IMG/VR virus record: IMGVR_UViG_3300044821_000052
Span: 1-55,891 of that record
Length of the DNA: 55,891 nt
From: a virus
Lineage: Duplodnaviria > Caudoviricetes
Reading direction: 5' to 3' (one strand)
The notes beneath the pieces are model-generated. The model did not search any database. It was given only the letters and a program-made list of their open reading frames with translations, and was not told where the DNA came from. This document shows, one piece after another, positions 6,021 through 52,504 of the stretch. The translations under genes and the position numbers were made by a program. The first letter of the stretch is position 1. Each line of letters starts with the position of its first letter.

Positions 6021-6021
6021 C

Positions 6022-6465
6022 ATGGGAACTGCCAGTGTGTCCAGTACATACAATGCTGCCGCTGTACGGCAGCTTCTGACTAGCCCCAGTGGTGGCCTGG
6101 TCAAAGATCTGATGCGCCGTGGGTTATTGGTTGAGTCAGCTGCAAAGCGGAACCTCAGGTCGTCTCCCACCCGCGTCAACACTGGGCGCCTTTCAGGATC
6201 TATCACAATGCGTGTCGTGACAGTCAATGGTGCACCAGCAGTTCGCATTGGCACATCAGTCAAGTATGCCATGTTCGTGCATCAAGGCACTGGAGTATAT
6301 GGCCCAGCTGGGCGCATGATTCACCCTGTCAACAAGAAGGTGCTGCGCTGGCGTTCACGAACTGCATCTGGTAAGAAAGGCAAGGGCTACACTTTCTCAA
6401 TGTATTCACGAGGCATGAAGCCTAATCCATTCTTGAAGAATGCACTCAAGGCCGCACGAGGATAG
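6022..6465 (+). CDS. HK97 gp10-like tail completion protein
   Basis: VNTGRLSGSI, YAMFVHQGTG, GMKPNPFLKNAL motifs. Confidence 0.8.
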   Translation: MGTASVSSTYNAAAVRQLLTSPSGGLVKDLMRRGLLVESAAKRNLRSSPTRVNTGRLSGSITMRVVTVNGAPAVRIGTSVKYAMFVHQGTGVYGPAGRMIHPVNKKVLRWRSRTASGKKGKGYTFSMYSRGMKPNPFLKNALKAARG

Positions 6466-16555: not shown

Positions 16556-17652
16556 AGGTCTATGTCTTCCCAGCAGATGTTAGTGGATGCGGATACTATC
16601 GTCTTATCTGGCCGACACGTGTTCTGCAGGCCGCTGGGCATGATGTTCAACTCGTGTATCCACATCAACGACATGGGCTGATTAAGGCCGAAGTTGATGT
16701 CAAGACTGGGCACCCAGTTGGTGTCATTGTGCCAGATGACGCAGATGTGCTAGTCTTCCAACGAATCACGCATATCACTCTTGCGCGTGCGATACCACTG
16801 ATTCGTGCTCAAGGTAAGGCCGTTGTCATCGACATCGATGATGACCTTTCACGTATTCATCCGAGTAATCCTGCGTTCCATGCGATGCATCCTAAGAACG
16901 TGCAGCTGGGCATTAGCGAGCACTCCTGGGCTGCATGTGAAATGGCATGTCGAAATTCAACTGTTGCTCAGGTCTCCACACCTGCGCTTATTCAACGATA
17001 TGCACCAACACGTGATCGCGTATCTGTGTTGAAGAATTACATCCCAGAAAGCTATCTTGGTGTGCGACACCATGATAGCAATGTCGTTGGCTATGGCGGT
17101 GCATTGCACTCGCACTCAAATGACGTTCCTGAGCTGGGTAACTCCATTCGTCGGTTGCAGTCCAATGGCTATGACTTCATGACTATTGGTGAGATGCCCA
17201 AGACGGAACTAGTGCTTGGACTGCAGCGACCTACCATCCCGCTGGGTCCAGTACCGATCACCGAATGGGCAGGCACACTCACCAAGATTGGTATCGGTGT
17301 CGCGCCGCTTGCTGACACGCAATTCAATCAAGCAAAGTCCTGGCTTAAGATGCTGGAGATGGCGGCCGTCGGAGTGCCGTGTATAGGGTCCCCCAGAGCC
17401 GAGTACAAGGCCCTTCACAAGCTAGGGGTAGGTCTACTAGCCAACGACCCGAAAGACTGGTACAGGACGTTACAGAGCCTTATAACAGATGGCATGAAAC
17501 GGCGTGACCTTGCGGCTGCTGGGCGAGAAGTGGCGTGTCGTCTTACGATTGAGCAGAATGCATATCAGTGGCTTGAGACATGGAAGATGGCCTACGAGAT
17601 GGAACAGGTCGGTCTTCCTGACATGCTGACAGGTGCTACACGGACCAGGTGA
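16552..17652 (+). CDS. GT-B (GT4-like) glycosyltransferase
   Basis: GCGYYR, DIDDD, GVAPL..FNQAKSWLKMLEMAAVGVPCIGS. Confidence 0.85.
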   Translation: MKVYVFPADVSGCGYYRLIWPTRVLQAAGHDVQLVYPHQRHGLIKAEVDVKTGHPVGVIVPDDADVLVFQRITHITLARAIPLIRAQGKAVVIDIDDDLSRIHPSNPAFHAMHPKNVQLGISEHSWAACEMACRNSTVAQVSTPALIQRYAPTRDRVSVLKNYIPESYLGVRHHDSNVVGYGGALHSHSNDVPELGNSIRRLQSNGYDFMTIGEMPKTELVLGLQRPTIPLGPVPITEWAGTLTKIGIGVAPLADTQFNQAKSWLKMLEMAAVGVPCIGSPRAEYKALHKLGVGLLANDPKDWYRTLQSLITDGMKRRDLAAAGREVACRLTIEQNAYQWLETWKMAYEMEQVGLPDMLTGATRTR

Positions 17653-30082: not shown

Positions 30083-30541
30083 CTATTCTACTACTCTCAA
30101 AAGTTCTGCGACGACGCTGGGTCGAAACGTCAGCAACGTCACAAGGACATGCCGTGCAGCATCGTTGGCATGTCCATGCTTTGGTGTATACAGACTGATT
30201 CGTCGCAATGTGTCATTCTTGAATCGTGCGGCTGTCGATGCTGATTGTATATCAACAGTGACCTTGTACTTTACACCAAGACTTTGCACACTGCCGATGA
30301 TCTGACTAGCTGCAGGTTGACGAGACTTCTTATGCGTGTTGGCTAAGATCGCATAACGTTGTATGCCAATGAATGTCTCATATCGGCTAAAATCACGTTG
30401 CTTGAGCAAGCCCTCAACAAATGGCTCAACATCAACCTGCTCAAGTTCATGTGTCTCGAATGATGTTGCAGTCCACACAGCAATGCCTGTCATCTTACCA
30501 GGATCAATACCAATGACACATAGGATCTTATGTTGCGTCAA
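30083..30541 (-). CDS. RuvC-like Holliday junction resolvase
   Basis: IGIDPGKMTG, HANDAARH; probable TTG start overlapping the end of the polymerase gene. Confidence 0.75.
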   Translation of the reverse strand: MTQHKILCVIGIDPGKMTGIAVWTATSFETHELEQVDVEPFVEGLLKQRDFSRYETFIGIQRYAILANTHKKSRQPAASQIIGSVQSLGVKYKVTVDIQSASTAARFKNDTLRRISLYTPKHGHANDAARHVLVTLLTFRPSVVAELLRVVE

Positions 30542-32348
30542 ACTTCCACTCTTCCTTTGCGCCCCAGCGCTGGCCGTATGACATGGACGCAGTAATCGGC
30601 ACGAGATATGTGGTGAGATCATTCATGACGCTGTGAATTGTCTGCACTGCAGCATCAAGATGCTCATTGGGTATATCAAGCACGATCTCATCATGCACAG
30701 GCATCATCATATACGGTCCTAGCCCAGCAGCATCAAGTTCAAGTAGCTTAGACTTGAAGATCTCAGCAGCAGAGCCCTGGATGAGATAATTGATCAATGC
30801 GTAGATCTTGTTGGTATCTGCAACGTGATGGCGACCAGTTACGGGGCTTGGAAAGTACGGAACACCCGTTTCTCGCTGGGCATTCCACGCGAATGATTCG
30901 ACCTGCTTAGTAAACCGCTTGGTTCCAGAATATAGTTGATTCCATCTGGCCTTGATGACAGATGCTTGCTCGGTGGGGATGCCTGCAGTTTCAGCGAACT
31001 TCGCAACACCTGCACCGTAGATTTCTGAGTAGCCGGCATTCTTGGTGATCTGACGGCGAGGGTCACCCTTAACAATACTTGAATCATCAAAGATTTGACG
31101 TGCAAGGTCAACAAAGAAGTCACCACCAGATGCATGTGCATTGTTGAATGCAGCGACCAACCCAGGGTCACGTGAAATGTGCGCAAGCAGACGCATTTCA
31201 ATCTGATCAAAATCACACATCAGCATGGTGTGCCCTGGCCGTGCAGTGATGCAGTTACGTACGACTTCCGCAGCCTTGTTCTTTTCACTCTTGCGTGGAA
31301 GCGTCTGAAACCCTGGGTCTGTGATGGTCATACGGCCTGTGCGAGTGCCCATAGGGTTAATGTTCGGATGGATCAGATGGTTGCTGTCATGCTCGTTCAG
31401 GAAGTGCTTAAGGTACGTGCTGGTCAGCTTCTGAAGCCGACGACGTTGCAACACAGTCTTTGCCAGTGGATGATCAATACCCTGCAGCACATCACTGTCA
31501 AGTGCAAGCTTGCCACCAGGAGTTTGCTTGCTGAAGTCATAACCTTCAGACTGCAAAATCTCAATAATGGCATCGTTCGACCCAGCGCGACACTGATAGT
31601 TTGTCTTGACCCATGCATCTGCATTCGCAATATATTCAAGGAACTGATTGTACTTCTCGGCAGTGTAGTCGACATCGACATGCGCGCCATATCGCATCAT
31701 GGCAAGCGTGACCCACTGGGTTGACAGTTCAAGCTCATATGACTTAGCAACACCCAGTGATTTGATCAATGGGGCATGGTGGTCATAGAGATGCACGGTC
31801 AACACTGGGTCAAGTGCACCATAGGTCCAGTATGGTTCAAAGTTGACGGGTACAGTGTCCCAACCCCAACCACCATGCTTAATTGCCTTATCAAGCGTGG
31901 TCATTCCTGCTGCAGCGTTCTCATCGATCCATCGTGAGCACTGATTCTTCAATGCCTTAGACACGTTCGGTTCAAGAACGTGACTCATTGTCATTGTGTC
32001 ATGAATGAGATGGATCGGAACTATGACGCCAGCTGCCGCAAGTTTGGGTTGGTCAAATGGTGCATTGTGGAAGACAAATGTGTTGCCATCAGTATCAGAC
32101 CAGTTGTTGGTGATCTGCTTGCACAAACCACGCCAGTCCTCGAATGGAATGGCCCAACCATGCTCATGTCCGCCTACCTGAAATAGACGAATCTTAGCAT
32201 CATGTTCCAACCCAGTGGTTTCAGTGTCAATGCCCATGACACCTTCGAGATCACGTGACCCCATCCATCTCATCAGGTCGCATGCTGCATCGAAGTTGTC
32301 GACCAGATGAAGTTGAAGGGAGTCAGGCAATCCACTACGCTGGGTCAT
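30528..32348 (-). CDS. Family A DNA polymerase with 3'-5' exonuclease
   Basis: DTETTGL, HNAPFD, DFDQIEMR, RQITKNAGYSEIYG, NYLIQG, PVHDE. Confidence 0.95.
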   Translation of the reverse strand: MTQRSGLPDSLQLHLVDNFDAACDLMRWMGSRDLEGVMGIDTETTGLEHDAKIRLFQVGGHEHGWAIPFEDWRGLCKQITNNWSDTDGNTFVFHNAPFDQPKLAAAGVIVPIHLIHDTMTMSHVLEPNVSKALKNQCSRWIDENAAAGMTTLDKAIKHGGWGWDTVPVNFEPYWTYGALDPVLTVHLYDHHAPLIKSLGVAKSYELELSTQWVTLAMMRYGAHVDVDYTAEKYNQFLEYIANADAWVKTNYQCRAGSNDAIIEILQSEGYDFSKQTPGGKLALDSDVLQGIDHPLAKTVLQRRRLQKLTSTYLKHFLNEHDSNHLIHPNINPMGTRTGRMTITDPGFQTLPRKSEKNKAAEVVRNCITARPGHTMLMCDFDQIEMRLLAHISRDPGLVAAFNNAHASGGDFFVDLARQIFDDSSIVKGDPRRQITKNAGYSEIYGAGVAKFAETAGIPTEQASVIKARWNQLYSGTKRFTKQVESFAWNAQRETGVPYFPSPVTGRHHVADTNKIYALINYLIQGSAAEIFKSKLLELDAAGLGPYMMMPVHDEIVLDIPNEHLDAAVQTIHSVMNDLTTYLVPITASMSYGQRWGAKEEWKFDAT

Positions 32349-32778
32349 ATGGTACTATGTCCTTCACTATGAGACACTCGATGCCTGCTGCTTGCAAGAC
32401 GGAAAGACCTTCGCTGTTCTGATATGCCGTCGCCGCCACAACATGGTTGATGCCGGCTGTAACGATAAGCATCGCACATACCCTGCACGGAACCATGGTC
32501 GAGTAAAGTACCGAATTTTCGATTGCCACCCCTCGACGTGCAGCCGATACAAGGGCGTTCTGCTCGGCATGTACGGTGCGAAAACAGTGGCCACGGACCA
32601 TCTGGTGGCCCACGACGTCACAGTGCGGAAACCCGGGCGGCGATCCGACATACCCCGTCGCAAGTATCTGGCGGTCGAGAACAAGAATCGCACCTGAGCG
32701 ACCACGATTGCAGGTGGCCCGCTGGGCGACGGCATCCAGCATCTGAATGAAGTATTCATCCCATGTCACCCGTGTCAT
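32335..32778 (-). CDS. dCMP deaminase family
   Basis: RATC.R..GA, HAEQNA, PCRVC. Confidence 0.92.
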   Translation of the reverse strand: MTRVTWDEYFIQMLDAVAQRATCNRGRSGAILVLDRQILATGYVGSPPGFPHCDVVGHQMVRGHCFRTVHAEQNALVSAARRGVAIENSVLYSTMVPCRVCAMLIVTAGINHVVAATAYQNSEGLSVLQAAGIECLIVKDIVPYDPA

Positions 32779-33629
32779 CTGCGCTCATCTCTGAACGGTG
32801 CAAGTTCGTTGAAGTACCACTGTGCACCGACGTATCCCAGTCGCAGATCATCGCATGTCTGATCATAAACAATGTCATGCGCACGCAGTCGCATCTCTGA
32901 CACGAGGTCACCAGGTCGTGCCAGACCTTTCGGCTGGTCTGGTGCGCCCTTTGGCGCACGAAGTTGCGTCAATAGCGATTCGTGCTGCGCATAGAGATGG
33001 AATGACCATGCCGTGTGCCGGTACTTCCCAGTCTTCACACCTAGGATTGTTGCCACGGTATGCTGCAACTGGGTGAACTGGAAGATATCATACGGTGTAC
33101 CCAGCCACACATCGTTCGACCGCATTAAGGTATTCAGTTCCAGAACTGGCTGGCCTTGGTTTACCAGTCGGAATCCCAGTGAAACGGTGCAGGGATAGTC
33201 CCGCTTTGCACCTAGTGCAGAATCCTTCTTCGGATCCCACAACGTGATGACTGCTTGCCGTGTATCTGGGTCACGACGTAACTTGTTGACGACATCGTTC
33301 AACTGATCGCCGATGCGATCACCATAGGCGCCATGGAAGGTTCCGTCGTCCTCCTGGAACGCTCTGAATGCGTCACTGGACCAGACCGTCAGGGCAGGAT
33401 CTCCGAAGCCTCCGATAAGCTGGATGGCTTCTGCTGCGGCGATATGCGAGTTGACTCGACGTCCGCATCCGATAGGTAGAGCGTTATCCGCGGATTTGAA
33501 TACGAGAGTGGTCGGACCAAGGTCCCACGTAGTCTGACCACGAGGAGCACACTGCTGTCCTCTGTCTCGCACAAGTTGCGGCAGCTTCCAGTAATCTTCA
33601 AACCCAGTCCGTAGTTGGATGATCTCCAC
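32775..33629 (-). CDS. Thymidylate-synthase-superfamily enzyme (pyrimidine hydroxymethylase/methylase-like)
   Basis: DTRQA, DYPCT, MRSNDVWLGTPYD, HTAWSFHLY. Confidence 0.88.
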   Translation of the reverse strand: MEIIQLRTGFEDYWKLPQLVRDRGQQCAPRGQTTWDLGPTTLVFKSADNALPIGCGRRVNSHIAAAEAIQLIGGFGDPALTVWSSDAFRAFQEDDGTFHGAYGDRIGDQLNDVVNKLRRDPDTRQAVITLWDPKKDSALGAKRDYPCTVSLGFRLVNQGQPVLELNTLMRSNDVWLGTPYDIFQFTQLQHTVATILGVKTGKYRHTAWSFHLYAQHESLLTQLRAPKGAPDQPKGLARPGDLVSEMRLRAHDIVYDQTCDDLRLGYVGAQWYFNELAPFRDERR

Positions 33630-34180
33630 TAGTCGTGGTCACTCCCCATCGTGCGTCCAATTTCATGCCTACGCGCAATTCGTATGATATTCATGATGTC
33701 AAAGTCATCAACTTGCTTGCTATACCGCAGTACTGGAAGCATCGACTGCCTGATAACAAAGTCGTACCCAGCGATGATCTCACGCAATTGATGTGGTGCA
33801 ATGAGATCATCACCACGTGCTGTCAATCGCGCAATGAGAAGTGGAAGTGGTGGTTCCATATAGATGACAATGGCACCCAGGTTGCATAGGAATGTCTCAA
33901 TGTGCTGAGACACTGCATGTGACCAGCGAGTGTGTCTGCCCAGCACGTTTGGATACACCGCTTCTCCGAGGTGCCAGCGATCACAAATGACAGTCCGCTG
34001 GGTGCCTGGCTGATAGTCTTGAAGTGGTGTTTCATACTCGTCAAATGGATGCTTCGTTGGTGGCCCTGCATGTAGAATGTCAAGCTTCTCATCCGGTGAA
34101 TGCGCTAGAACTGCATCCATAAGACGTTTCACCAGTGTTGACTTGCCAGCGCCGTCAGGTCCTTCGACGATGATGAGCAT
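33629..34180 (-). CDS. dNMP kinase (thymidylate-kinase-like)
   Basis: IIVEGPDGAGKST, DRWHLGE.VY, RGDD. Confidence 0.85.
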   Translation of the reverse strand: MLIIVEGPDGAGKSTLVKRLMDAVLAHSPDEKLDILHAGPPTKHPFDEYETPLQDYQPGTQRTVICDRWHLGEAVYPNVLGRHTRWSHAVSQHIETFLCNLGAIVIYMEPPLPLLIARLTARGDDLIAPHQLREIIAGYDFVIRQSMLPVLRYSKQVDDFDIMNIIRIARRHEIGRTMGSDHD

Positions 34181-34223
34181 CTATATTTATCCTCTCCTAT
34201 TCTCATTTTCTCAGTTGATCCTA

Positions 34224-34469
34224 TCACCGATATGTGATGTACCTATGTGCAGTATATCGAGCCACGTCTCCACGAGCGTAAATGATTGGAGCGTAATGCT
34301 GTGCACGGTATGACTCACGTGCTTGTATGACTGGACGTTGAGGGCGATGGATGCCTTGATATTTCACATATTTCTTAGGTATCGGTTGCGCGAGTAGCAC
34401 AAGCATCGTGACGATGACAAGGACACACCAACCGATATAGACACTGGTACCAATGTTGATGTGATTCAT
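34224..34469 (-). CDS. Small membrane protein
   Basis: One TM helix, basic tail, GGAG RBS. Confidence 0.55.
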   Translation of the reverse strand: MNHINIGTSVYIGWCVLVIVTMLVLLAQPIPKKYVKYQGIHRPQRPVIQARESYRAQHYAPIIYARGDVARYTAHRYITYR

Positions 34470-34494
34470 CTCGTTATCTCCATTTAGGTTAACG

Positions 34495-34862
34495 CGAGCG
34501 GGCCGCGACGCCGATGTCTACGACCCGCTCGGTTCTGATTTCACTATACGCTATCAGTACTTCACAAGGTTGACATACCGAGGCAAATACTAAACGCAAC
34601 CGGAACGAAGTTCGACTTAGCCCCAGCTGTACGAACCATGGGTCATAAACCCATTGCTGCGCCCAGTACAGCCGGGGCCAAGCGCCCGCTACGTTACTCT
34701 GCAGTTTTTACGGTCATATGAGAAGGGCGAGTCGAACATCGGGACCGAACCGAGTTTAACGTCATCTTGGGACGGCAGGCCTGATGGTGTAGGCTAGGGG
34801 CCATGTGCATCAGGCGTGCGACTAAGCTGGATCAACTTACCCAGGTGTCTGGGGTATCACTG
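34495..34862 (-). ncRNA. Candidate large structured RNA / 5' leader of unknown class
   Basis: At least 8 stems in ~370 nt with no ORF >=60 aa; A-C mismatches become G-U pairs on the minus strand; own promoter. Confidence 0.6.
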
Positions 34863-34869
34863 CTCAATT

Positions 34870-34899
34870 ACTATACCAGGTGGCCAACACACTGTGTTG
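34870..34899 (-). promoter_or_regulatory. Extended -10 promoter with palindromic operator-like site
   Basis: Minus strand TGG-TATAGT (34878-34870); CAACACA-c-TGTGTTG (34885-34899). Confidence 0.55.
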
Positions 34900-34937
34900 A
34901 CGTGTGCTAGTACCATTTCGTTGTCGGAATTATTCGC

Positions 34938-35420
34938 TTATGCTGTGTCGAGTAACATTTCGTTCACAGGATTACTAATCCATTGATCGAACACAAGCTG
35001 AAATTTCTCGTCATTGTCTGCTGCGTCATCAAGCGCATCTTGTGCTGGGCGTGTGATGAATGATTCGCACAATTCACCACGATCAAACTTGCGCACAATC
35101 AGTGCACTGATGACAGATGCTGCATCATCAGTACGAACCAACCGTACTTTCTGCATCTCACCCGGCACATTGGAAAGACCAGCTGTGTGCACAATGTAAG
35201 CGCCCAGTCGCTCTTCATTATGATGTGTTAGTCTAATGATCTTCACCTCAGACCACCGACATGCCTTGCATTTCTGCCCAGGCGCCGCCACGTCATTGAT
35301 GTGGCTGTGCAGATTGCTACGACTGGATCCTTGACCCAGCAGCAAGCCGTGCACAGTGACTGGGCCTTCTCGCGTCATCAGCACCATGTCCCGAGCGTGT
35401 GTCAACGCTGTCTCTGACAT
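34938..35420 (-). CDS. Hypothetical protein (H.H..CKACRW motif)
   Basis: GGAGG RBS before MSETAL. Confidence 0.65.
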   Translation of the reverse strand: MSETALTHARDMVLMTREGPVTVHGLLLGQGSSRSNLHSHINDVAAPGQKCKACRWSEVKIIRLTHHNEERLGAYIVHTAGLSNVPGEMQKVRLVRTDDAASVISALIVRKFDRGELCESFITRPAQDALDDAADNDEKFQLVFDQWISNPVNEMLLDTA

Positions 35421-35629
35421 GCGTTCCTCCAAAATCTCGTTTTTCTCATATGTAAGATTCGTTTAATAATACCATGTTGCGTTTCCACTGGCGTGGGATC
35501 CATTTACGTGACTATGTATAATTAAGTTCTCTGCACGTCAATTGGCACATCAATTGGTACATACTGTAACATTTGGACACTGATTGTTACTTGACTGTTA
35601 CAAGATGTGAGATTAATGAGAGGAAACAT

Positions 35630-38131
35630 ATGCCAAATGACGTTCGTTTTGATGTAGCGAAGGATTACATCGAACGTGGTTGGAAGGTGATGCTTCTTGC
35701 TACAGATCGCACTGGCGGCAAGATTCCACCTAAGAATTGTGCACGTTGTAACTTTCGCCAAGGTGCTGAGCGGCATGACATGGAGGCATGTGATTGCTTA
35801 TTGTGTCATGGCTTCCATATGGCAACAGGTGATCTTGACCGCTTCGTACTGATGCTTGCAGCACTGCCACATGGTTCACTTGCTATTCGGACTGGTCAAG
35901 CATCACGCATCTTGGTCATTGATGCTGAGGCACATGGCGACGGTGACGGTGACACTGGTATTGATGTTATCACAGCTTGGGAGGCACACACCCAGCTGAG
36001 CACTGGACTGCCTGAGACATTGCGTGCGCGATCAGTATCTGGTGGATTGCATCTCTATTATGCGCTCCCGCCAAACGTCTACATTACGAGTGGACGAATC
36101 CTGCCGTTTGTTGATGTCAAAGCAGAGTTGGGATATGTCGGCGCGCCAGGTGTTGGTACGCGTGAGTGGTTGAACCCAGGCACTCCAGTTGCAGAACTAC
36201 CAAATGAGATTATTAAGTGGTTGACACGAGGGAAGCGACAAGGATACCGCGGACGTGGTGCTGGTACTGGTGCTGTTGGCGTTGGTGGTAGTGGTGCCAG
36301 TGGGATGTCGCGTCCTGAGGGTTATGACTTTGAGTTGTTCTCACGTGATGGTGCGCCTCGAGGATATCGCGATTACTTCATCAATGACGCGATTTTTCGT
36401 CTTCGCAAGCGAGGTGTGACTGGTCCTGCATTGGAAGAGCAGGCGTTTGAGCATTGGACGCGATTTGACCAGTCAGATGGCGAATTCCCTTGGGAAGACG
36501 TCAAATACAAAGTTGATCGCGTTGAACATGAGGTCATACCAGACGTTGATGCTGCGGAGACGTCAGGATACAGCTCCTGGATTGCGCGCCTAGGTAAACC
36601 TACTAAAAAGGGGTTTTCGGAGCCCAGCGGAGGAATGGGAGCGCCAGAACGGCCCGCTGGGCTGGGATCCGGGCCTGCGTTTGCTAACCAGCCGCCGGCG
36701 TTCGAGGTTGAGCTCACGCCGACTGGTAATGCACATCGATTCGTGAATTTGTTTCGTGAATCAACGCTGTACGTCCCAGGACTTGGTTGGCATGTCTGGC
36801 GTGGGAATGTGTGGCAGTACGACGAATTGAATGATGTCTTGGACATGACACATGAAGTGCTATTGCAACTTCGTCAAGAACAAGCGATGTTCGAGGCATC
36901 AGACGATGACCAAGCAGATCGTATTCGTGCTTGGTATGTCGCTTCATCAAGTGCTGGTGCACGGCAATCAATGTTGGAGCTCGCGGCATCTGACCCTCGT
37001 GTCAAAGTTTCAGCGAATGCACTGGACGCAGATCCGTGGACGTTAGTCGTCAAAAATGGAACAATTGATCTGCGCACGCGCAAGCACCGTGTGTCGGAGC
37101 CATCGGATTTCAACACGCGAGTTGCCAATGTGCTATATGACCCAGCGGCTGAATGCCCTCGCTGGCTGGAGCACATGAAGTTGGTATCTCAGTCAGCAAC
37201 TGGTGAGATTGACTGGTCCTGGATCGCGTTCGTGCAGCGTTGGATGGGTTACACGCTGACTGGGATTGTTGACGCGCAGAAGTTCTTCTTTGGTTTCGGC
37301 GGTGGCAACAATGGCAAGAATGTCATGATCGAAACATTGTTGGAGATCATGGGTGAGTACGGCATTCGTGGATCATCGAAGTTGTTGCAAGGCTCGGGGC
37401 AAGAACATGAAACGGTTATTGCAGACCTTGCTGGAATTCGTATGGCCTTCATCGACGAAACACCCAGTGGTCGGATCAATGAGTCTCGAGTGAAAGAGTT
37501 GACAGGATCATCTAAGGTTCGAGCACGAAAAATTGCGAAAGATTCATTTGAGTTCTCAATGCAGGCCAAGTTGTGGATTGCTGGTAATAACAAGCCGCGG
37601 GTGTCTGACTCATCAGATGGGTTCTGGCGTCGGTTAGACCTTGTGCCATTTGATGCAGTCATCCCAACAGATCAACGGATCACTAACTACATGCAGGTGT
37701 TGTTGGAAGAATCTTCAGGCATTTTGAATTGGTGTCTTGAAGGTCTGGCTGGGTATCTGGAGTTGGGTGGTCTTGGGTCACCACAACGTGTCGTCGATAT
37801 GGGTCAGACATATCGAGAAGATGAGAATGTCTTGGAATTGTTCCTAGCAGACACTTTCGCAACTGATGGTTCAACCCAGTGGTTGCCGAATAGCGTGATT
37901 CATGGAATGTATACGGAGTGGTGTGAGTCACAAGGTGTTAAAGAGATTCGATCAATGATTTCACTTGGTATGGACTTTCAACGTGCTGGATTAGTACGTG
38001 ATCCAGTAACACGTCGAATTAGATGGGTTTGGCAGGGCAAGACTCAAGTAGTACGTGGATGGATTTGCCCAGGGTTATTGAATAACATTTCTGAAATGCT
38101 TCGGTTTGAACGAACTGATGGTGGTAAATAA
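35630..38131 (+). CDS. Prim-pol primase fused to D5/P4-type SF3 helicase
   Basis: LVIDAE, SGGLHLYY; GGGNNGKN, FIDE, GNNKP, GFWRR. Confidence 0.92.
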   Translation: MPNDVRFDVAKDYIERGWKVMLLATDRTGGKIPPKNCARCNFRQGAERHDMEACDCLLCHGFHMATGDLDRFVLMLAALPHGSLAIRTGQASRILVIDAEAHGDGDGDTGIDVITAWEAHTQLSTGLPETLRARSVSGGLHLYYALPPNVYITSGRILPFVDVKAELGYVGAPGVGTREWLNPGTPVAELPNEIIKWLTRGKRQGYRGRGAGTGAVGVGGSGASGMSRPEGYDFELFSRDGAPRGYRDYFINDAIFRLRKRGVTGPALEEQAFEHWTRFDQSDGEFPWEDVKYKVDRVEHEVIPDVDAAETSGYSSWIARLGKPTKKGFSEPSGGMGAPERPAGLGSGPAFANQPPAFEVELTPTGNAHRFVNLFRESTLYVPGLGWHVWRGNVWQYDELNDVLDMTHEVLLQLRQEQAMFEASDDDQADRIRAWYVASSSAGARQSMLELAASDPRVKVSANALDADPWTLVVKNGTIDLRTRKHRVSEPSDFNTRVANVLYDPAAECPRWLEHMKLVSQSATGEIDWSWIAFVQRWMGYTLTGIVDAQKFFFGFGGGNNGKNVMIETLLEIMGEYGIRGSSKLLQGSGQEHETVIADLAGIRMAFIDETPSGRINESRVKELTGSSKVRARKIAKDSFEFSMQAKLWIAGNNKPRVSDSSDGFWRRLDLVPFDAVIPTDQRITNYMQVLLEESSGILNWCLEGLAGYLELGGLGSPQRVVDMGQTYREDENVLELFLADTFATDGSTQWLPNSVIHGMYTEWCESQGVKEIRSMISLGMDFQRAGLVRDPVTRRIRWVWQGKTQVVRGWICPGLLNNISEMLRFERTDGGK

Positions 38132-38185
38132 CTTGTGAGTTGTTGGTTGCACAGTGCATTATAACAGCTAGATATAGATGAGAAT

Positions 38186-38480
38186 CTAAGATGTTACAAC
38201 AGGTGTTACAAGATCATAAGCATCCTGACTATAGGAAATAAAGATCATGTAACAACTGTAACACCTGTAACACCTTAATGTCGGTCCGTGCGCACCATGG
38301 CGCGCAGGTATGTGATGCGCACGCTCGCACATGTGCACCCACACACATGCGCTCACACACATCGCACCATGCATGCATTGACGGTGGCAACAAGGCGTTA
38401 CAAGTGTTACGCCGTTTCATGATCTTTATTTCCTAAGGTCAGGGCATGTTTGATCTTGTAACGCTTGTTGAAACGCCTAG
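38186..38480. repeat. ~90-bp imperfect inverted repeat with GTTAC/GTAAC iterons; candidate replication origin
   Basis: Arms 38186-38276 and 38392-38480; perfect 18-bp core 38232-38249/38418-38435. Confidence 0.8.
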
Positions 38481-38574
38481 TGGCGGCTAGATGTTACAAG
38501 CTCCTAGTGTCGACTAGATTATTGCTATTTGCAGTTGATGTGATCACTGAACGTAGTTGAAAGTAGTTGAACGC

Positions 38575-39628: not shown

Positions 39629-40342
39629 ATGAGTGGCAACATCGTCATCCTTGTTCCTACGCGTAAGCGTGCGCGATCCATCGTTCCATTGGCACGAGCA
39701 TTTGCTAACACTGTCACTGGCCTAATGGGCAGTGTGTGGTTGATGCTATGTGTAGATGGCAACGACAATCATGAATACAAGGATGTATACAACGAGGCAG
39801 TTGAGATTTACCCACACATGATGATAGGTACAGGTCCACGTCGAGGACTCGTCGGTACGCTCAACTATTACTCTGCACGAATGATACGACCAGAGATTCG
39901 TGCCATCGGATATATGGGCGACGATCACCGACCTATGACACAGGGTTGGGACGAACAGGTTCATGCTGCACTGGACGCCATGCAGGGCATGGGAATCGTG
40001 TATGGCGATGATGGCATTCAACACGAGACACTGCCAACTGCATGTGTAATCAGCACTCCCATCCTCATCCAGCTGGGTCACATGGCTCCGCCAGTGTTAC
40101 AGCACATGTACTGTGATAATTACTGGCGTGATCTGGGACTGGGCGCAAACTGTCTCATGTACTTGCCTGATATGAAGATCACACACTTGCATCCCAGTGT
40201 CGGTGCAGCCGACTGGGACGAGTCTTATCTTGAGTCGAATCACCCTGATATATTTGCTGCAGACAAACTGGCATATGAGAAGTACAAGCAGGATTTCTCA
40301 CTTGCTAGTGACATTGCCAAGATTTCAATACAAGGAAGATAA
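39629..40342 (+). CDS. GT-A glycosyltransferase
   Basis: ILVPTRKR, YMGDDH, HMYCDN, HLHP. Confidence 0.8.
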   Translation: MSGNIVILVPTRKRARSIVPLARAFANTVTGLMGSVWLMLCVDGNDNHEYKDVYNEAVEIYPHMMIGTGPRRGLVGTLNYYSARMIRPEIRAIGYMGDDHRPMTQGWDEQVHAALDAMQGMGIVYGDDGIQHETLPTACVISTPILIQLGHMAPPVLQHMYCDNYWRDLGLGANCLMYLPDMKITHLHPSVGAADWDESYLESNHPDIFAADKLAYEKYKQDFSLASDIAKISIQGR

Positions 40343-40350
40343 CGAGACTA

Positions 40351-41322
40351 ATGACACAAATCGTCAACATTGCGCGACGAGAACTGCACACAACTCCAGT
40401 TTTTGATACATATTGGCGATTTGCAGCTGCACGACAGCACATTTACGAATCTCGGCAAGCTGGCTTGCCAGCGCCATGGACTTCTGACCCAATTCTGCTA
40501 AATCATCGATTCACTAACTGCTTTCGTGCTGCAGATCGTGTGAGTCAGTTTCTCATTCGTGATGTGCTCTACACTGGGTCACAAGATCCGAAGGAAGTCG
40601 TCTTCAGATCACTTCTGTTTAGATTGTTCAATCGTGTGTCAACATGGCAATTGCTGACGTCGCATTTTGGCCAATTGACATACAAGAATGCTGACTTTGC
40701 TGCTTATGACGCTGTGTTGTCAAAGGCATTCGCAAATAAGCAACGCTTGTACTCGGCGGCGTACATCATCGCAACACCAGCATTTGGGCAGGAACGTCGA
40801 CACTCCAATCATGTGCAATTGTTGCGTTACATGATGGAAACACGAGTGCATGAACAATTGATGCATGCGACTGGCATGGAACATGCATTTCAGGTGCTAC
40901 TCCAGTATCCGTCTATTGGCAACTTTCTGGCATACCAGTTGCTTCTTGACATCAACTACAGCAATGTCATCGACTTTGATGAGAACGAATTCTCAATGCC
41001 TGGTCCAGGAGCACGTGACGGCATTCGTAAGTGTTTCGGTGCGGTTCCACGTGGCATTGAGGACCAAATACTTCAGTATATGGTTGATACGCAAGATGAG
41101 CATTTTGCCCGGCTGGGTTTGACGTTCAATGGACTAAATGGACGTCGATTGCATCTGACTGACTGCGAAAACTTGTTCTGCGAGACAGACAAATATGCAC
41201 GTATGGCACATCCTGAGATCGCAGGATTGTCAGGGCGTACGCGGATCAAGCAGAAGTACACACCAGACCCGAAGCCATTGCAAGCTTGGTTCCCACCCAA
41301 ATGGCGTATTAATACCATTTGA
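40351..41322 (+). CDS. 5-hmdU DNA kinase family (aGPT-Pplase1 / HMUDK helical domain)
   Basis: PWTSDPIL..RFTN.FR..DRVSQ, LFRLFN, YSAAY, IG.FLAYQ..D, GPGA..G, ENLFCE.DKY. Confidence 0.85.
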   Translation: MTQIVNIARRELHTTPVFDTYWRFAAARQHIYESRQAGLPAPWTSDPILLNHRFTNCFRAADRVSQFLIRDVLYTGSQDPKEVVFRSLLFRLFNRVSTWQLLTSHFGQLTYKNADFAAYDAVLSKAFANKQRLYSAAYIIATPAFGQERRHSNHVQLLRYMMETRVHEQLMHATGMEHAFQVLLQYPSIGNFLAYQLLLDINYSNVIDFDENEFSMPGPGARDGIRKCFGAVPRGIEDQILQYMVDTQDEHFARLGLTFNGLNGRRLHLTDCENLFCETDKYARMAHPEIAGLSGRTRIKQKYTPDPKPLQAWFPPKWRINTI

Positions 41323-41347
41323 TAATGATGCAAGGAGATATGAGACA

Positions 41348-41998
41348 ATGCCAGATATCGTCAAGTTGGCACCACAGGAGTCGTGGACGTTTGCACCTTT
41401 GCCTGAGTTCATGCGAGAGCACAGCATTATGCCAAGTGCAGTGGCGCACATTGGCGCGCATCATGGTGAAGAGGTTGACATCTACCATGAGTGCGGGTTC
41501 AAGACCATCTATCTCTACGAACCCGACCCGCGCAATCTCGAAGTCTTACGTTCCCGTGCAGTCAACGATCCCACGGTCAGTATCGTTGCTGCGGCGGTCA
41601 CTACGCGCTCCAAGGGGCCACAGCAGCTTCACCTCGCTGCACGCACGGTATGGAGCGGGCTTAGTCCGCACCCCACTGCAACCGGCGACACCGTCGTCGT
41701 TCCGACAGTTCCGATGTCACATCTGTCGTCACTGGTCAACGTACTAGTGCTAGACACGCAAGGCAGCGAGTACGAATTGCTACGTGCCGCTGACCTGAGC
41801 CTGCTTGACCTGGTCATCGTCGAGACAACACGACGTCGAGGTGACGGTGCTGCCTTCTACGAAGACGCGGTTGCTTACATGGAGGACTGCGACTGGGTGC
41901 CTGCCCAAGAGTGGGTCCACGACGACTCGGGATACACCGACACGGTCTTCATCAAGAACAACCGCCAGAAGTACCTACAGACGAAGGATGCCGCATGA
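41348..41998 (+). CDS. FkbM-family SAM methyltransferase
   Basis: HIGAHHGEE, YEPDP, LDTQGSE. Confidence 0.85.
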   Translation: MPDIVKLAPQESWTFAPLPEFMREHSIMPSAVAHIGAHHGEEVDIYHECGFKTIYLYEPDPRNLEVLRSRAVNDPTVSIVAAAVTTRSKGPQQLHLAARTVWSGLSPHPTATGDTVVVPTVPMSHLSSLVNVLVLDTQGSEYELLRAADLSLLDLVIVETTRRRGDGAAFYEDAVAYMEDCDWVPAQEWVHDDSGYTDTVFIKNNRQKYLQTKDAA

Positions 41999-42189: not shown

Positions 42190-42247
42190 CTAACCCAATC
42201 CCACGGCCACGTCCACCAGTTGACGAACTAGCTAGGAAGTGCCGCTC

Positions 42248-42346
42248 ATGAAGGCTAGCGTCATCCTCCTGGCCGTCGGCCTGGCACTCGTCTCGGCATC
42301 GCTTGCTGGGTCGCTTGTACTAGTACTCATAAAGTGGCTCAAATAG
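42248..42346 (+). CDS. 32-aa hydrophobic peptide
   Basis: MKASVILLAVGLALVSASLAGSLVLVLIKWLK translated by hand. Confidence 0.4.
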   Translation: MKASVILLAVGLALVSASLAGSLVLVLIKWLK

Positions 42347-42347
42347 T

Positions 42348-42491
42348 ATGGGCACAATACACATCTTCCGTAAGAAGCCTGTCATCATTGAAACAGTACA
42401 GTGGACTGGTGATAATTCCGCAGAACTGCATAGCTTCGCTGGGGCAGAGGCTGCGTTCACCACAGCAGTGTACAAGTTGAGAGACTTGTGA
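42348..42491 (+). pseudogene. Probably truncated member of the common phage RKKPV.IE..QW.G.N family
   Basis: MGTIHIFRKKPVIIETVQWTGDNSAEL.. stops at 47 aa. Confidence 0.45.
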
Positions 42492-46772: not shown

Positions 46773-46846
46773 CGCGGGGTAGCGCAGCTTGGTAGCGCAG
46801 GAGGTTCATAACCTCACGGTCGCGGGTTCAAATCCCGCCCCCGCCA
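46773..46846 (+). tRNA. tRNA-Met (CAU), initiator-like body, no encoded CCA
   Basis: CGCGGGG TA GCGCAGCTTGGTAGCGC A GGAGG TT CAT AA CCTCA CGGTC GCGGG TTCAAAT CCCGC CCCCGCC A. Confidence 0.9.
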
Positions 46847-46879
46847 CTTCAGTACCCATACGAGGATAGGTGGTAATCG

Positions 46880-47609: not shown

Positions 47610-49274
47610 ATGGCTGACCGTCGTGTGAGACATCAGACTACTGGTGAAATGATGCCATGGTCTGGCATGGATCGTCCCTATCGTGATGCACGTGAAGAGC
47701 ATGGTCTCACAGCATCTGCTGAGATTCTTGTTGTTGACAATACCCGATCACTTGTCATTCCACCACTTGAATGGCAACGTGAGGCATGGGCCTTTTATCA
47801 CACCCTGGGTGAACTGCACTTTTCCATTGGTACGTGGCTTGCTAATGCTGCATCGAAGATTCGTCTCACTGCTGCAGTAACACGCATTGGTGAGGACCAA
47901 CCCAGCGTTGTTACTGACGGTCCAATTGCTCAGATCGTTGCTTCCATGGGCGGCGGCATCAATGGCCAAGCCGCAATTCTCAAGCGACAGATCGTCCAAT
48001 TGTCTGTCGCTGGTGATTCGTATCTTGTAGGTGAAGATCCTACAGGTGCGGGCAACTTGTCAAGTATGACATGGACTGTTTACTCATCTGACGAGATTCG
48101 CATCAAGCAGCGCCAGACAAAGACTCTGATGAATGGTGGCGGCACTGTCACCTATGAAGTCAATGTGTATCGCAATGAGTGGCGGCAACTAGCACCTGAG
48201 TCAATGGTTGTACGGTGTTGGGATCCTGACGAGCAGTTCTCTTGGGCTGCCACATCTGTGTGCATGTCTGCGTTGCCAATCATGCGTGAGATTGACTTCT
48301 ACAACCGTTACATCATTGCGACGCTATTGTCTCGACTCGCAAGTAACGGATTGCTGCTAATCCCACAAGAAGTCACATTTCCAGCGAAAACACAGTTCAA
48401 GGATCAACCGGATCCATTTGTTGCGGAACTTATTGATATCGCAGCGCGATCCATCAAGAATCCTGGCAGTGCTAGTGCTGCGATGCCCATTCCATTGAAG
48501 GTACCTGCGCAGTACATTGACCAGATCAAGCATCTCGCCTTGGATACACCTCTTGGCAAAGAGGTAATGGAAAACCGTATTAAGGCATTGGAGCGATTGG
48601 CTTCAACACTGAACATTCCTGCAGAGGTCGTGAACGGCAAGACTGGTAACATGAACCACTGGGGTGCATGGCAGATGGAAGAGACATCCATCAAGCTATA
48701 CATCTCGCCGCCAGTTGAGATGCTAGTAGCATGCTACACTCAAGGATTCTTGTACCCGATTCTTGATTCACTTGGTATTTCGCGAACATCACCTGATGGT
48801 GGCCAGTATCTAATTTGGTATGACGTTAGTGAACTTGCCCAGCAACCTGACCGTTCTAAGGAAGCGGGCGACACTTACGATCGTGGTGAACTGTCGAGTG
48901 AAGCTCTTCGACGCGAGTCTGGGTTCTCGGAAGACGATGAACCCAACATGGATGACCTGAAGTCCATTGCACTTAAGAAGATTGCACTGGGTGGCGGTCC
49001 ACTATCCATGAATGCATTGGCGGCTCTTACTGGCGATGAGTCATTGATTCCGCCGACACCAATAGCTCCTGCGGCTGGAGGCGATACCAACGGTGGTAGC
49101 ACAGTTGTTGATTCCTCCCCGTCTAACGACAACCAGCCTCCGGCCGCAGGTCAATCACCTACTGATGTCAAGAAGGGTCCACCAGATACTCGTAATGACC
49201 CACCACCAGCTCCGAATGCAACGCAACAGCAAACATTGCGTATAAATCGGACAAACGGGGTTGGTATTCGATGA
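47610..49274 (+). CDS. Portal protein
   Basis: WQREAW, GELHF, SRLASNGLL.IP.E, NHWGAW. Confidence 0.88.
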   Translation: MADRRVRHQTTGEMMPWSGMDRPYRDAREEHGLTASAEILVVDNTRSLVIPPLEWQREAWAFYHTLGELHFSIGTWLANAASKIRLTAAVTRIGEDQPSVVTDGPIAQIVASMGGGINGQAAILKRQIVQLSVAGDSYLVGEDPTGAGNLSSMTWTVYSSDEIRIKQRQTKTLMNGGGTVTYEVNVYRNEWRQLAPESMVVRCWDPDEQFSWAATSVCMSALPIMREIDFYNRYIIATLLSRLASNGLLLIPQEVTFPAKTQFKDQPDPFVAELIDIAARSIKNPGSASAAMPIPLKVPAQYIDQIKHLALDTPLGKEVMENRIKALERLASTLNIPAEVVNGKTGNMNHWGAWQMEETSIKLYISPPVEMLVACYTQGFLYPILDSLGISRTSPDGGQYLIWYDVSELAQQPDRSKEAGDTYDRGELSSEALRRESGFSEDDEPNMDDLKSIALKKIALGGGPLSMNALAALTGDESLIPPTPIAPAAGGDTNGGSTVVDSSPSNDNQPPAAGQSPTDVKKGPPDTRNDPPPAPNATQQQTLRINRTNGVGIR

Positions 49275-52200
49275 CTCGCATTAAAGGTCTTAGTAGAAAG
49301 ACAACTGCACGGTGGGAAGATAAGCTTTCTCACCAGGTCATCGTCTCCCTGACCAAGGTGGCGACCGCAGCCAGTAGGAAACTGTCGACTGCCAGTCTTA
49401 GGGCCTCAGCGGAGGCTACAGGCACTCCAAATGCGACCCCTGGGCCAGCAGATGGGTCATCTGTCTCAGGCCAGAGCACAGATTCAGTTTCTGCATCATC
49501 TAATGACCTTGGTGTCATCAGAACGATGTGGTCGGCTGAAGTTGATAATGTTCTTGTGCCAATTGTGGCAGATCTCTACACTGCTTCTGCAAATAAGGTA
49601 CTTGCAAGTATTAGTAAGGCTGCACCACCTGATTTTGTAGCACCTGTTGTAACGAATGATGTTTCTGAGGCGTATCTTCGCAATGCGACGAACCGACTCA
49701 AGAATATCGGCAATGATCTGTGGACGCATGCATCCGCTGGGTTAGCCGATGGCATGGCGGCTGGTGAGCCCATTGAGCAATTATCATCTCGTGTACAACT
49801 TGCTGCACATGTGACCGAACCTCGCGCAGATGTTATTGCACGTACTGAAGTCAACACTGCAGCAAACTTTGGGTCCTTCACATATGCGTCAATGGCGAAC
49901 GATGCAGGTGTTGGAATGACCAAGGAATGGCTGTGCGTTCTTGACAGCCGTGTACGCCCAGACCATCGCAATGCCAATGGTCAGGTGCAGCAAATGAGTG
50001 ATCCATTCAATGTGGGTGGCTGGTCGTTAGCATACCCGGGGGACATGAATGGTCCTGCTGGTGAAGTTGCCAACTGTCGTTGTGACATCGTGTACAACAT
50101 GACTGACGCCAGTGGTGGTACGACAGAGGTCGGTGATTCAAGTACTATGGGTGTCATTGATGACACTGATGTCACTGATGTCATGAGTAGCATGGGTGGT
50201 GATATGCCAGATCTCACTGCAGCGCTTGATGTGGATGACACGTCATCTGACATCGACACTGACAACGTACCTGATGGTGACGATGATTCTGACACGGACA
50301 TCGAACCTATTCAGAAGCACACTGGTGCAATGGTCGCACTTGTACCCAGTGATGCGGACATTGCGCGTCTTGCACTACCTGGTGGTGAGACTCCAGAAGA
50401 ATTGCATCTGACGCTTTTCTTCTTAGGTGACAATGCGCAATATGACGATGTTGCTCGGCAACAAATTGTTACCAACATCCAGACGGTCATGCTGGACCAG
50501 ACGTCATTGTCAGTCACAGGTTTCGGTGTTGCGATCTGGAATCCGCTGGGTGACACGCCTGCACTTGTCATGAATGTTGGAGGCACTGGTCTTGACGAGG
50601 CACGCGACAGCGTTGAAGACGTTCTTAATGAACTCTGGCAGGTTAGCATGCCAGAGCAGCACCAACCTTGGCAACCGCATGTCTGTCTAGCATATTCGAC
50701 TGACCCAGCATCAATGGTCAATGCTGCACTTCAGTGTGTCGGACCGATCACATTCGATAAGGTCCGTGTGGCATTTGGTGCTGTCGTAACTGATATCCCA
50801 TTGGGATATAACACGGTACAAATGGCAATTCAGGCGGAGGCAACTGTGCCACCAACAAAGACTGTATTCCTTGCTACTGATGCACCATCTGTGACAGGTA
50901 CCGACACTGAAGGTGATTCGGTTGGTGCCATTGGCCAGACCAATCTCCCTGGTACAGTGCCTGCAATGGCGTCTTGGTCGACTGAGCTTGCGACACTGCC
51001 TGATGGAACATTAGCCGCTTGGGAGGGCATCCTTGTTGTCGAGGGTCAGACCACTGGTGATGGCCGTGAGTTCGCCCCTGGGTCACTAACTTGGGCTGAC
51101 CCTTGGTTGCCACTACGTTGGGCCCCTGAGGACTTCGGTGAGCACCAGGGAGCCATTAACGTCGCGCGTATCGATGAGGTCTGGCGCGATGATGTCGATC
51201 CCAACATCATTCGTGGTAAGGGATTCTTCAATGTCTCGATTCCACAAGGCCTACAGGCCTACCAGTCAGTCCAAGGGCAGATGCTTCGGGGTGTCTCGGT
51301 TGACGTCGACTCTGTGGCGGATTCAGACGTTGAACTCATCTTCCCTGTTGCACCAGATGATGGCAGTGACGATGGCACTGAGTCAACACCTGAAGACGAT
51401 ATGCTGTCGCAGTTGTTCGGTCCGCCACCGGACAAGATGGTCTTCCATGCTGGGCGGATTCGTGGCGCGACGTTGGTCGATTTGCCGGCATTTGTTGAAG
51501 CGCAGATTAGTACAGTAGCAATGGACGCCATGCCACCTGTGAAGACAGTCCCAGTACCAACGAGCGCACCTACTGCGTCAGGTACTGGTGACGCTGAACC
51601 AACCGCCAGTGTCAATGACATCGTCGCTGAACTTGGACGACTGTTGACCGACGCGACCTTGGGCATTAGTCTTGCACGTCGTCGTCAGCGGTATGACCGT
51701 TTGTCTTACGCACTGAAGCACAAGCATGGACTGACGGCGCAACCGTTCAGCGAGGATGTGCTGGGTGATGCAGTGAAGACACTCATTGCATGCGGTAATG
51801 TTGATGGATACACTGCACCAAACGCATGGATGTTCAAGCATGTGACGGACCAGCCTGTACGGCTAGGTGTCAACATCGCGGATGATGGTCGTCATATCTT
51901 CGGATATGCCGCGCTGTGGGGTACATGCCACATTGGACATCCGGATGTTTGCACAACTGCACCACGTGAAGACATGCATGCGCATTACCTGCTGGGTGAA
52001 GTCCTTACCAGTGAAGGTACTCGTATCTCTGTTGGTACTGTGACTTTGGGCACTGGGCATGCACCAATGTTCGGTGTAAATCCTCGTCAGGCCGTCGAGC
52101 ACTATGACAACACCGGTACTGCGATTGCTGATGTTGTGACAGGCAATGACGAGCATGGCATCTGGTTCGCAGGTGCGATTCGTCACGGTGTTGCCCCTGG

Positions 52201-52504
52201 ACGAATTGCTGAACTACGTGCAGCCAAACTGTCTGGTGACTGGCGTCGAATTGGCAATGACTTGCGACTAGTTGCATTGCTTGCAGTCAATGTCCCAGGG
52301 TTTGGAGTACCGCAGCTTGCGACACGTGTTTCGCATGGCACCCAGATGGCATTGATTGCCGCTGGGCTCTACGAGGTCGATGTTGATGCACAGGAACGAC
52401 ACACTGCCGTTCGTCGTATCAAGAATCGTATTGCTTCAGGCATTGGCCGTGATCTGGCTTCAAAGCGTGCGGCACTTCGGACGCAAGTTCACAGTAAGGG
52501 ATAA
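49271..52504 (+). CDS. MuF-like + 2H phosphoesterase + capsid maturation protease fusion
   Basis: IARTE, KEW..D.RVR..H, NCRC (MuF); LHLTL and PHVCL (2H); EGQTTGDGR, GVSVD, GATLV..PAF (protease); SGDWR..VNVPGF. Confidence 0.85.
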   Translation: MTRIKGLSRKTTARWEDKLSHQVIVSLTKVATAASRKLSTASLRASAEATGTPNATPGPADGSSVSGQSTDSVSASSNDLGVIRTMWSAEVDNVLVPIVADLYTASANKVLASISKAAPPDFVAPVVTNDVSEAYLRNATNRLKNIGNDLWTHASAGLADGMAAGEPIEQLSSRVQLAAHVTEPRADVIARTEVNTAANFGSFTYASMANDAGVGMTKEWLCVLDSRVRPDHRNANGQVQQMSDPFNVGGWSLAYPGDMNGPAGEVANCRCDIVYNMTDASGGTTEVGDSSTMGVIDDTDVTDVMSSMGGDMPDLTAALDVDDTSSDIDTDNVPDGDDDSDTDIEPIQKHTGAMVALVPSDADIARLALPGGETPEELHLTLFFLGDNAQYDDVARQQIVTNIQTVMLDQTSLSVTGFGVAIWNPLGDTPALVMNVGGTGLDEARDSVEDVLNELWQVSMPEQHQPWQPHVCLAYSTDPASMVNAALQCVGPITFDKVRVAFGAVVTDIPLGYNTVQMAIQAEATVPPTKTVFLATDAPSVTGTDTEGDSVGAIGQTNLPGTVPAMASWSTELATLPDGTLAAWEGILVVEGQTTGDGREFAPGSLTWADPWLPLRWAPEDFGEHQGAINVARIDEVWRDDVDPNIIRGKGFFNVSIPQGLQAYQSVQGQMLRGVSVDVDSVADSDVELIFPVAPDDGSDDGTESTPEDDMLSQLFGPPPDKMVFHAGRIRGATLVDLPAFVEAQISTVAMDAMPPVKTVPVPTSAPTASGTGDAEPTASVNDIVAELGRLLTDATLGISLARRRQRYDRLSYALKHKHGLTAQPFSEDVLGDAVKTLIACGNVDGYTAPNAWMFKHVTDQPVRLGVNIADDGRHIFGYAALWGTCHIGHPDVCTTAPREDMHAHYLLGEVLTSEGTRISVGTVTLGTGHAPMFGVNPRQAVEHYDNTGTAIADVVTGNDEHGIWFAGAIRHGVAPGRIAELRAAKLSGDWRRIGNDLRLVALLAVNVPGFGVPQLATRVSHGTQMALIAAGLYEVDVDAQERHTAVRRIKNRIASGIGRDLASKRAALRTQVHSKG

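Follow-up and report, generated by a model that had tools for sequence, protein, structure and literature searches.

The locus described here raises the question of what an ORF-free stretch of 468 nt contributes to a phage genome that is otherwise densely coded. It lies in the window, that is, the whole stretch of DNA that was analyzed (55,891 bases), which corresponds to IMG/VR record IMGVR_UViG_3300044821_000052 and has an estimated completeness of 74%. The phage is uncultivated, and its record is present in peat-metagenome runs. The structural proteins of the window are siphovirus-like (terminase, portal, major head protein, and tape measure), and an endolysin, a Sak4-like annealing protein, and an exonuclease are also encoded. 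Its PolA protein shares at most 37% identity with that of any cultured phage, and the best matches were found in actinobacteriophages. An unusual fusion was observed in a 1077-aa ORF at 49271-52504. Its N-terminal part matches the PHROG portal protein and head morphogenesis families, its C-terminal part matches head-maturation-protease and virion-structural families, and an RNA-ligase-like stretch is found at about residues 340-570.

The spacer belongs to a minus-strand block that codes for an SNF2 helicase, PolA, a dCMP deaminase, a thymidylate-synthase-like protein, a P-loop (thymidylate-kinase-like) kinase, g81, and g164. It is located on the transcribed strand before the kinase, thymidylate-synthase-like, dCMP deaminase, and PolA genes, and this agrees with the initial annotation, which had placed a structured RNA upstream of nucleotide and replication genes. 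The features that define the neighborhood are as follows.

34938-35432, minus strand: g164, a 164-aa ORF
34470-34937, minus strand: ORF-free spacer from g164 to g81, 468 nt, the whole candidate non-coding element
34224-34469, minus strand: g81, an 81-aa membrane-like ORF
30083-30622: g179, a 179-aa ORF
35573-38131, plus strand: primase-helicase gene, divergent from the minus-strand block

Pfam and PHROG searches gave no match for g164, and its Atlas structure model had a pLDDT of 0.36 and no usable match. The genes for the thymidylate-synthase-like protein, the dCMP deaminase, and the kinase are clustered at 32775-34180, and ORFs with the PHROG names of glycosyltransferase-like and methyltransferase-like proteins are located farther along, at 39629-41998 and 16552-17652. 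As a set, these genes might have a role in DNA base hypermodification. Directly after the primase-helicase gene, the intergenic region 38132-38560 is densely set with TGTTACA/TGTAACA words, which run in either orientation, and has a pair of 61-nt imperfect inverted arms (38193-38253/38414-38474). On each strand, no other part of the window stands out as strongly in folding. An inverted TGTTACA pair is also present in the divergent primase start region (35565-35571 and 35596-35602). In total, the window has 16 copies of these words against 7.9 expected (0/100 shuffles). To judge from its sequence, the array at 38132-38560 looks like origin iterons or an operator array.

The spacer is non-coding. 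There were at least three stop codons in each of the six frames, the longest ORF on either strand was at most 47 aa, and the codon-position GC content (0.54/0.49/0.56) had no periodicity, compared with about 0.6/0.4/0.5 in the flanking genes. When 1352 frames of relatives were compared with 34150-35000 by tblastn, only the N-terminus of the kinase was matched, and no protein remnant was detected in the spacer. The structured RNA had originally been given a length of about 370 nt, which falls short of the full 468 nt of the ORF-free stretch. Two more ORF-poor gaps of at least 250 nt were found in the window by greedy ORF tiling, at 6021-6445 and 42190-42456.

The inverted repeats that had been listed for this region were all present, namely I1 (34616-34632/34666-34682), I2 (34606-34617/34730-34741), I3 (34775-34786/34808-34819), and I5 (34495-34505/34521-34531). 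The two G-U pairs reported for the long stem on the minus strand appeared in the pair listing, and the 7-bp palindrome was found at 34885-34899 as a self reverse-complement match. The parts of the spacer are given below in the 5' to 3' direction of the minus strand.

34909-34974, minus strand: 24-nt direct repeat in two copies, core AACGAAATGKTACT, straddling the g164 stop codon
34884-34910, minus strand: 5' hairpin H1, 9 bp, including the 7-bp palindrome; in the MFE and centroid structures of the 441-nt fold
34840-34853, minus strand: short hairpin CCCAG/CUGGG, mean pair probability 0.98
34775-34819, minus strand: hairpin with 12-nt arms (I3), 92% complementary, probability 1.00
34685-34745, minus strand: conserved block in common with locus L006, aligned to L006 3684-3749
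34616-34682, minus strand: long hairpin of 16-17 bp, including two G-U pairs, with an apical 6-bp stem; probabilities 0.99 and 0.89
34554-34593, minus strand: hairpin H6 with a 9-bp outer stem; in the MFE and centroid structures of the sub-domain fold
34495-34531, minus strand: GC-rich 11-bp terminal hairpin without a U tract, probability 0.97, not scored as a terminator

The long hairpin lies directly 3' of the conserved block, and an internal loop separates its apical 6-bp stem from the 16 pairs. The terminal hairpin sits 13 nt upstream of the Shine-Dalgarno sequence of g81, and the sequence after it is CGUUAACC instead of a run of U. The two copies of the direct repeat, at 34909-34932 and 34951-34974, are spaced by 42 nt, have no other exact copies in the window, and may be a candidate protein-binding site. 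Further intragenomic repeats of the spacer were not found in the window.

Folding of the spacer depended on the strand. The minus-strand RNA (441 nt) had an MFE of -171.5 kcal/mol with a z score of -4.15, and none of 100 dinucleotide shuffles was as good, in agreement with the structured RNA proposed for this strand. For the plus-strand RNA, the z score was -0.89 and 16 of 100 shuffles were as good. Three minus-strand sub-domains gave z scores of -3.71, -2.41, and -3.04 (0/200 shuffles each). When DNA parameters were used, the two strands were nearly equal (z -2.6 and -2.4), which indicates that the inverted repeats are real in the DNA, and that the extra stability is specific to the transcribed strand, where the surplus comes from G-U pairs.

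Comparison with native sequence gave a more sober picture of the same energies. Among 252 windows of 440 nt from the same phage, the spacer ranked 10th after GC regression. Twenty-four sense-strand coding windows of 441 nt had a mean z of -1.35 (sd 1.20), and one of them reached -4.15. This one is the minus-strand window 31801-32241 inside PolA, which had a z score of -4.5, as low as the spacer, so values of this size arise in the coding sequence of this phage. At the scale of 157 nt, 7 of 117 windows had z scores of -3 or below. The fold energy of the spacer thus belongs to roughly the top 4-6% of native windows and no further, and is unremarkable against native sequence.

Pair probabilities separated the local from the global structure. 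In a 471-nt context, pairing was robust for the long stem (S2, 0.99), its apical stem (S3, 0.89), the hairpin at 34775-34819 (S5, 1.00), the hairpin at 34840-34853 (0.98), and the final hairpin (0.97). Five local hairpins were robust, namely 34616-34682 with its apical stem, 34775-34819, 34840-34853, 34495-34531, and H1. Pairing was weak for the multiloop closure (0.16-0.18), for 34683-87/34725-29 (0.18), and for 34760-63/34771-74 (0.23), and the global MFE architecture shifted when the ends were moved by 30 nt between the 441-nt and 471-nt folds. The idea of a structured RNA is therefore retained for the local hairpins and for the advantage of the minus strand over shuffles, but not for the enclosing multiloop, nor as an outlier among native windows. 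Instead of a single large and ornate structure, the models predict five or six stable hairpins that form locally, one after another. As the initial annotation had stated, the element could not be assigned to a known class. Rfam 15 at gathering scores reported two tRNAs elsewhere in the window and nothing in the spacer, and at E<=10 on 34200-35200 it gave five noise matches of 15-19 bits, compared with cut-offs of 45-50.

Protein-anchored scans provided 22 related loci (L002-L023), several of which represent one phage that is present in both of two collections, as with L003 and L011, whose rows in the synteny comparison were identical. The order of primase, g164, a variable slot, kinase, thymidylate synthase, dCMP deaminase, PolA, g179, and SNF2 is kept among relatives. 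The nearest relative is L006, with identities of 62% for PolA, 64% for SNF2, 67% for dCMP deaminase, 41% for the kinase, and 38% for g164. The content of the slot is different in every relative and consists of various small ORFs, with a tRNA-Met gene in L004, L006, L007, and L009, and no homolog of g81 was found in any related locus. The slot with the tRNA-Met gene comes after either g164 or the primase. The tRNA-Met genes are located at the following positions.

L004, 479-555: tRNA-Met gene in the slot
L006, 3546-3620: tRNA-Met gene in the slot
L007, 358-432: tRNA-Met gene in the slot
L009, 3642-3716: tRNA-Met gene in the slot
Window, 46773-46847: tRNA-Met gene called by ARAGORN, beside packaging genes

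The tRNA-Met gene of the window is about 12 kb from the slot, suggesting that the tRNA was moved or replaced, and it is identical to that of L006 at 53 of 76 positions. In L004, a tRNA-like 3' half (GGTTCGAGTCCTGG with flanking complementary arms) is present at about 1060-1110, about 500 nt downstream of the tRNA-Met gene. This half was called neither by ARAGORN nor by Rfam at the gathering score, and its sequence suggests that it may be a decayed second tRNA.

The minus-strand spacer was compared with the slot of each of seven relatives by Smith-Waterman alignment. Six slots gave chance scores, and L006 gave a clear match, in which 34745 to 34685 of the window aligned with L006 3684-3749 at 51 identical positions out of 68 columns (75%). 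The score of 33 compares with 18.9 +/- 2.1 in dinucleotide shuffles and was reached by 1 of 3000; the wrong orientation scored 21, and 117 other 468-nt pieces of the window scored at most 28. With seven slots tested, the significance is about p = 0.002. The words common to both blocks are GTCCnGAnGTTCG, CGTAAAA(A/C)CTG, and CGTAGCGGG, and they are single-copy in the window. Outside the block, the flanks of the spacer did not align to L006. As read from the alignment, the block has indels whose lengths are not divisible by three, which argues against a peptide common to both phages. Its identity of 75% is found between two phages whose neighboring proteins are 38-67% identical.

The context of the block in L006 is similar in layout but different in detail. 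There the block begins 63 nt after the tRNA-Met gene and has a long GC-rich hairpin directly on its 3' side, and the 195-nt post-tRNA spacer has a fold z score of -3.02 (1/200 shuffles). This hairpin and the window hairpin at 34616-34682 are unrelated in sequence, and the L006 block precedes other ORFs than the window block does. On sequence grounds, a helix CGCCC/GGGCG in the window would correspond to CGACCC/GGGAUCG in L006, where one strand has gained an A and the opposite strand AU, and would persist; a helix of this type is not favored in the ensemble of either phage. RNAalifold on the pair gave -13 kcal/mol, with no convincing consensus and a structure that differed from either MFE. The block is known from the window and L006 only, and two sequences are too few for covariation.

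Wider searches added no further copies. No match to the spacer was found by blastn (distant mode) in 50,697 phage records, or by blastn and nhmmer in the related loci. A covariance model of the 157-nt core, built from a single sequence (R1), recovered the window itself and matched 0 of 22 related loci and 0 of 4 near-complete related genomes. A hairpin pattern scan of IMG/VR viral contigs gave 0 matches. Scans of the same contigs with block patterns returned the contig of L006 and two others, L025 and L026, which failed nhmmer and synteny and were rejected as chance matches. Block pattern scans of GTDB species genomes gave 0 matches and then 9 chance matches. A search of 4 records with the 91-nt block gave 0 matches and also missed the known L006 copy, so it is uninformative. 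No hit was obtained in a scan of viral contigs anchored on the g164 protein, and a scan with the L006 homolog of g164 recovered only itself. A kinase scan of metagenome contigs produced 13 loci, and the best identity among them was 51%, so no close relative was found.

Sequencing runs with this DNA comprised two DNA runs, X1 and X2, and a metatranscriptome from a third study, X3. X1 is possibly the sample from which the record was derived. The X1 and X2 pieces are identical DNA and added no variation. In X3, a single contig was found in 33600-35800.

34711-34853, strand not given by the contig: single X3 metatranscriptome contig, 143 nt, 0 differences

This contig had a depth of 5.6 and carried eight loose letters at each end, which we take to be remains of Illumina adapters. 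One of its ends, 34853, coincides with the base at which the CCCAG/CUGGG hairpin begins, and the other is just before UAAAAACUG in the conserved block. The chance that a 143-nt piece falls inside the spacer is about 15%. The contig is a weak hint of expression, as it shows neither strand nor level, is no proof of transcription, and could be DNA carry-over, and those parts of the 2.2-kb stretch that X3 does not cover are no evidence of silence.

Several explanations other than a non-coding RNA element have to be weighed against these results. The spacer had been interpreted as a leader of the riboswitch or terminator-antiterminator type, in which binding of a nucleotide or folate would control the genes for the kinase, thymidylate synthase, and polymerase, a reading suggested by its position upstream of nucleotide-metabolism genes and by an 8-bp complement (34528-34535/34747-34754) that overlaps the last hairpin. 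The eight Watson-Crick pairs exist, but their pairing probability is 0.02 and they are at chance level, since a perfect 8-mer complement occurred in 66% of 500 dinucleotide shuffles and the observed count of 4 was reached by 10%. With this probability and an overlap of just 4 nt, a switch between mutually exclusive pairings is not supported. In addition, there were 0 terminator-like sites in 33900-36000, the Shine-Dalgarno sequence of g81 (GGAG, 34478-34481) is in a loop position in the MFE and is not sequestered, and no Rfam aptamer was matched. Relatives that share the operon are without the structure, as judged by the core model in the 22 loci and 4 near-complete genomes, and in L006 three unrelated ORFs lie between the block and the kinase. 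The leader model is largely refuted and is very improbable. A gene resembling a tRNA or tmRNA, in degenerate or unusual form, is less probable still, even though relatives have a tRNA-Met gene in the slot. ARAGORN under relaxed settings (-ps80 with introns, -ps60 for tmRNA) reported a tRNA-like fold spanning 34731-34990, in which a 4-bp hairpin similar to a T arm coincides with the start of the conserved block. However, neither default settings nor -ps80 with introns switched off gave a call, the relaxed match has its 5' half inside the g164 ORF, and the Rfam tRNA and tmRNA models were empty at E<=10. The T-loop of a tRNA is expected to have A58, whereas the loop of this fold is without it, and no CCA follows.

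A DNA-level regulatory region is unlikely, but more probable than these two. In this case the block, the palindrome, and the 24-nt repeats would bind proteins, as operators or a non-sigma-70 promoter for the genes downstream, and the hairpins would be by-products of the repeats being inverted in the DNA. The folds with DNA parameters are significant and similar on both strands, the palindrome at 34885-34899 is real, the direct repeat occurs at 34909 and 34951 only, and a conserved primary sequence between unconserved flanks has the look of a binding site. On the other side, scoring of the minus strand for sigma-70-like promoters gave none at the spacer, the block words are single-copy, and three G-U pairs in the robust stems favor a minus-strand RNA. 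Moreover, the clear repeat array of this phage is elsewhere, at 38132-38560 and 35565-35602. For a replication origin, the spacer offers two-copy direct repeats only and no iteron array; an origin is unlikely here, as a better candidate is available at 38132-38560. An attP site was also rejected, since no integrase was found among the 30 ORFs scanned of a record that is 74% complete. The spacer might instead have no function and be what is left of decaying protein or tRNA genes in a hypervariable slot, with hairpins within the native range. This is consistent with slot content that varies in every relative, with g81 lacking a homolog in any locus, with a fold z score matched by 1 of 24 coding windows, and with the lack of a homolog beyond L006. 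We nevertheless regard it as rather unlikely, because the block survives at 75% identity where proteins are 38-67% identical, and because neither a protein remnant (tblastn, 1352 frames) nor a partial tRNA match at E<=10 was found. Phage genomes rarely keep 468 nt of junk, which also counts against this reading.

Our preferred reading is that the tRNA slot here holds a functional non-coding RNA element read from the minus strand, either a processing or stability module or a stable RNA, and we give it a probability of about 0.45. The established points are that the stretch is non-coding, that it has local hairpins and a folding preference for the minus strand, that it contains a conserved core, and that a fragment of it is present in one RNA library. 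According to this preferred reading, the element would share a transcript with the leftward block of replication and nucleotide genes, and its 68-nt sequence-conserved core, flanked by stable local hairpins, would belong to the variable slot downstream of g164. Cleavage of the RNA might take place where the core is A-rich and single-stranded, and the hairpins might then guard the ends that result, on the upstream piece as well as on the message for g81, the kinase, thymidylate synthase, and PolA. Alternatively, the element could be a stable processed RNA in its own right. Transcription within the operon, cleavage, and any effect on expression are inferences.

A bolder version of the RNA interpretation, which we consider quite unlikely, is that a new and rare class of phage ncRNA, of which the spacer and the corresponding L006 sequence would be the first two examples, occupies the tRNA slot where the replication operon begins and acts in trans. 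Such a class would have a core of about 70 nt (GUCCnGAnGUUCG ... CGUAAAAnCUG ... CGUAGCGGG) next to a variable long hairpin, and it might act on host translation, tRNA, or RNA turnover, as suspected for GOLLD and ROOL. If the element is real, it would be one more unclassified structured RNA among the few phage ncRNAs beside tRNA genes, and a group of uncultivated phages from soil and peat would have a conserved signal where their replication operon begins. At present, it is an orphan candidate with two sequences and a fold energy within the native range, and a lead for later work.

The element was compared with three known systems, and its absence from known families was tested against Rfam 15. 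Like a riboswitch or attenuator leader, it is a long structured region upstream of metabolic genes, but it differs from such leaders in having no aptamer family, no terminator, no helix sequestering the Shine-Dalgarno sequence, and no alternative pairing above chance, and it is not conserved upstream of the same genes. The nearest known kind is that of GOLLD and ROOL, large ornate RNAs encoded by phages and prophages. The length of ROOL is roughly 580 nt. As described in a preprint, GOLLD and ROOL are often near tRNA islands, GOLLD members are often longer than 800 nt, and GOLLD env-38 is downstream of a Met-tRNA (bioRxiv 10.1101/2024.12.08.627333). The element resembles these RNAs in being phage-encoded and non-coding, and it may have a similar association with tRNA genes, with the block 63 nt past the L006 tRNA-Met gene and a tRNA-Met gene in the slot of four related loci. 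In contrast, the spacer is at most 468 nt long, it is predicted to form a simple row of hairpins instead of an ornate pseudoknotted fold, and it has no tRNA beside it in the window, where the tRNA-Met gene is at 46773. The GOLLD and ROOL models of Rfam gave no match at E<=10 in 34200-35200 of the window or in 3400-3900 of L006, and membership in these families was rejected on account of this result, the much smaller size, and the simple predicted fold. The third comparison concerns mRNA processing. T7-like phages have intercistronic RNase III hairpins, which probably define and protect mRNA ends and which are single and about 60 nt long. The hairpin at 34616-34682 is similar to these sites in position and shape only, being a long imperfect intercistronic hairpin on the sense strand. 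The difference is that several hairpins and a conserved single-stranded core are here combined in one 468-nt spacer.
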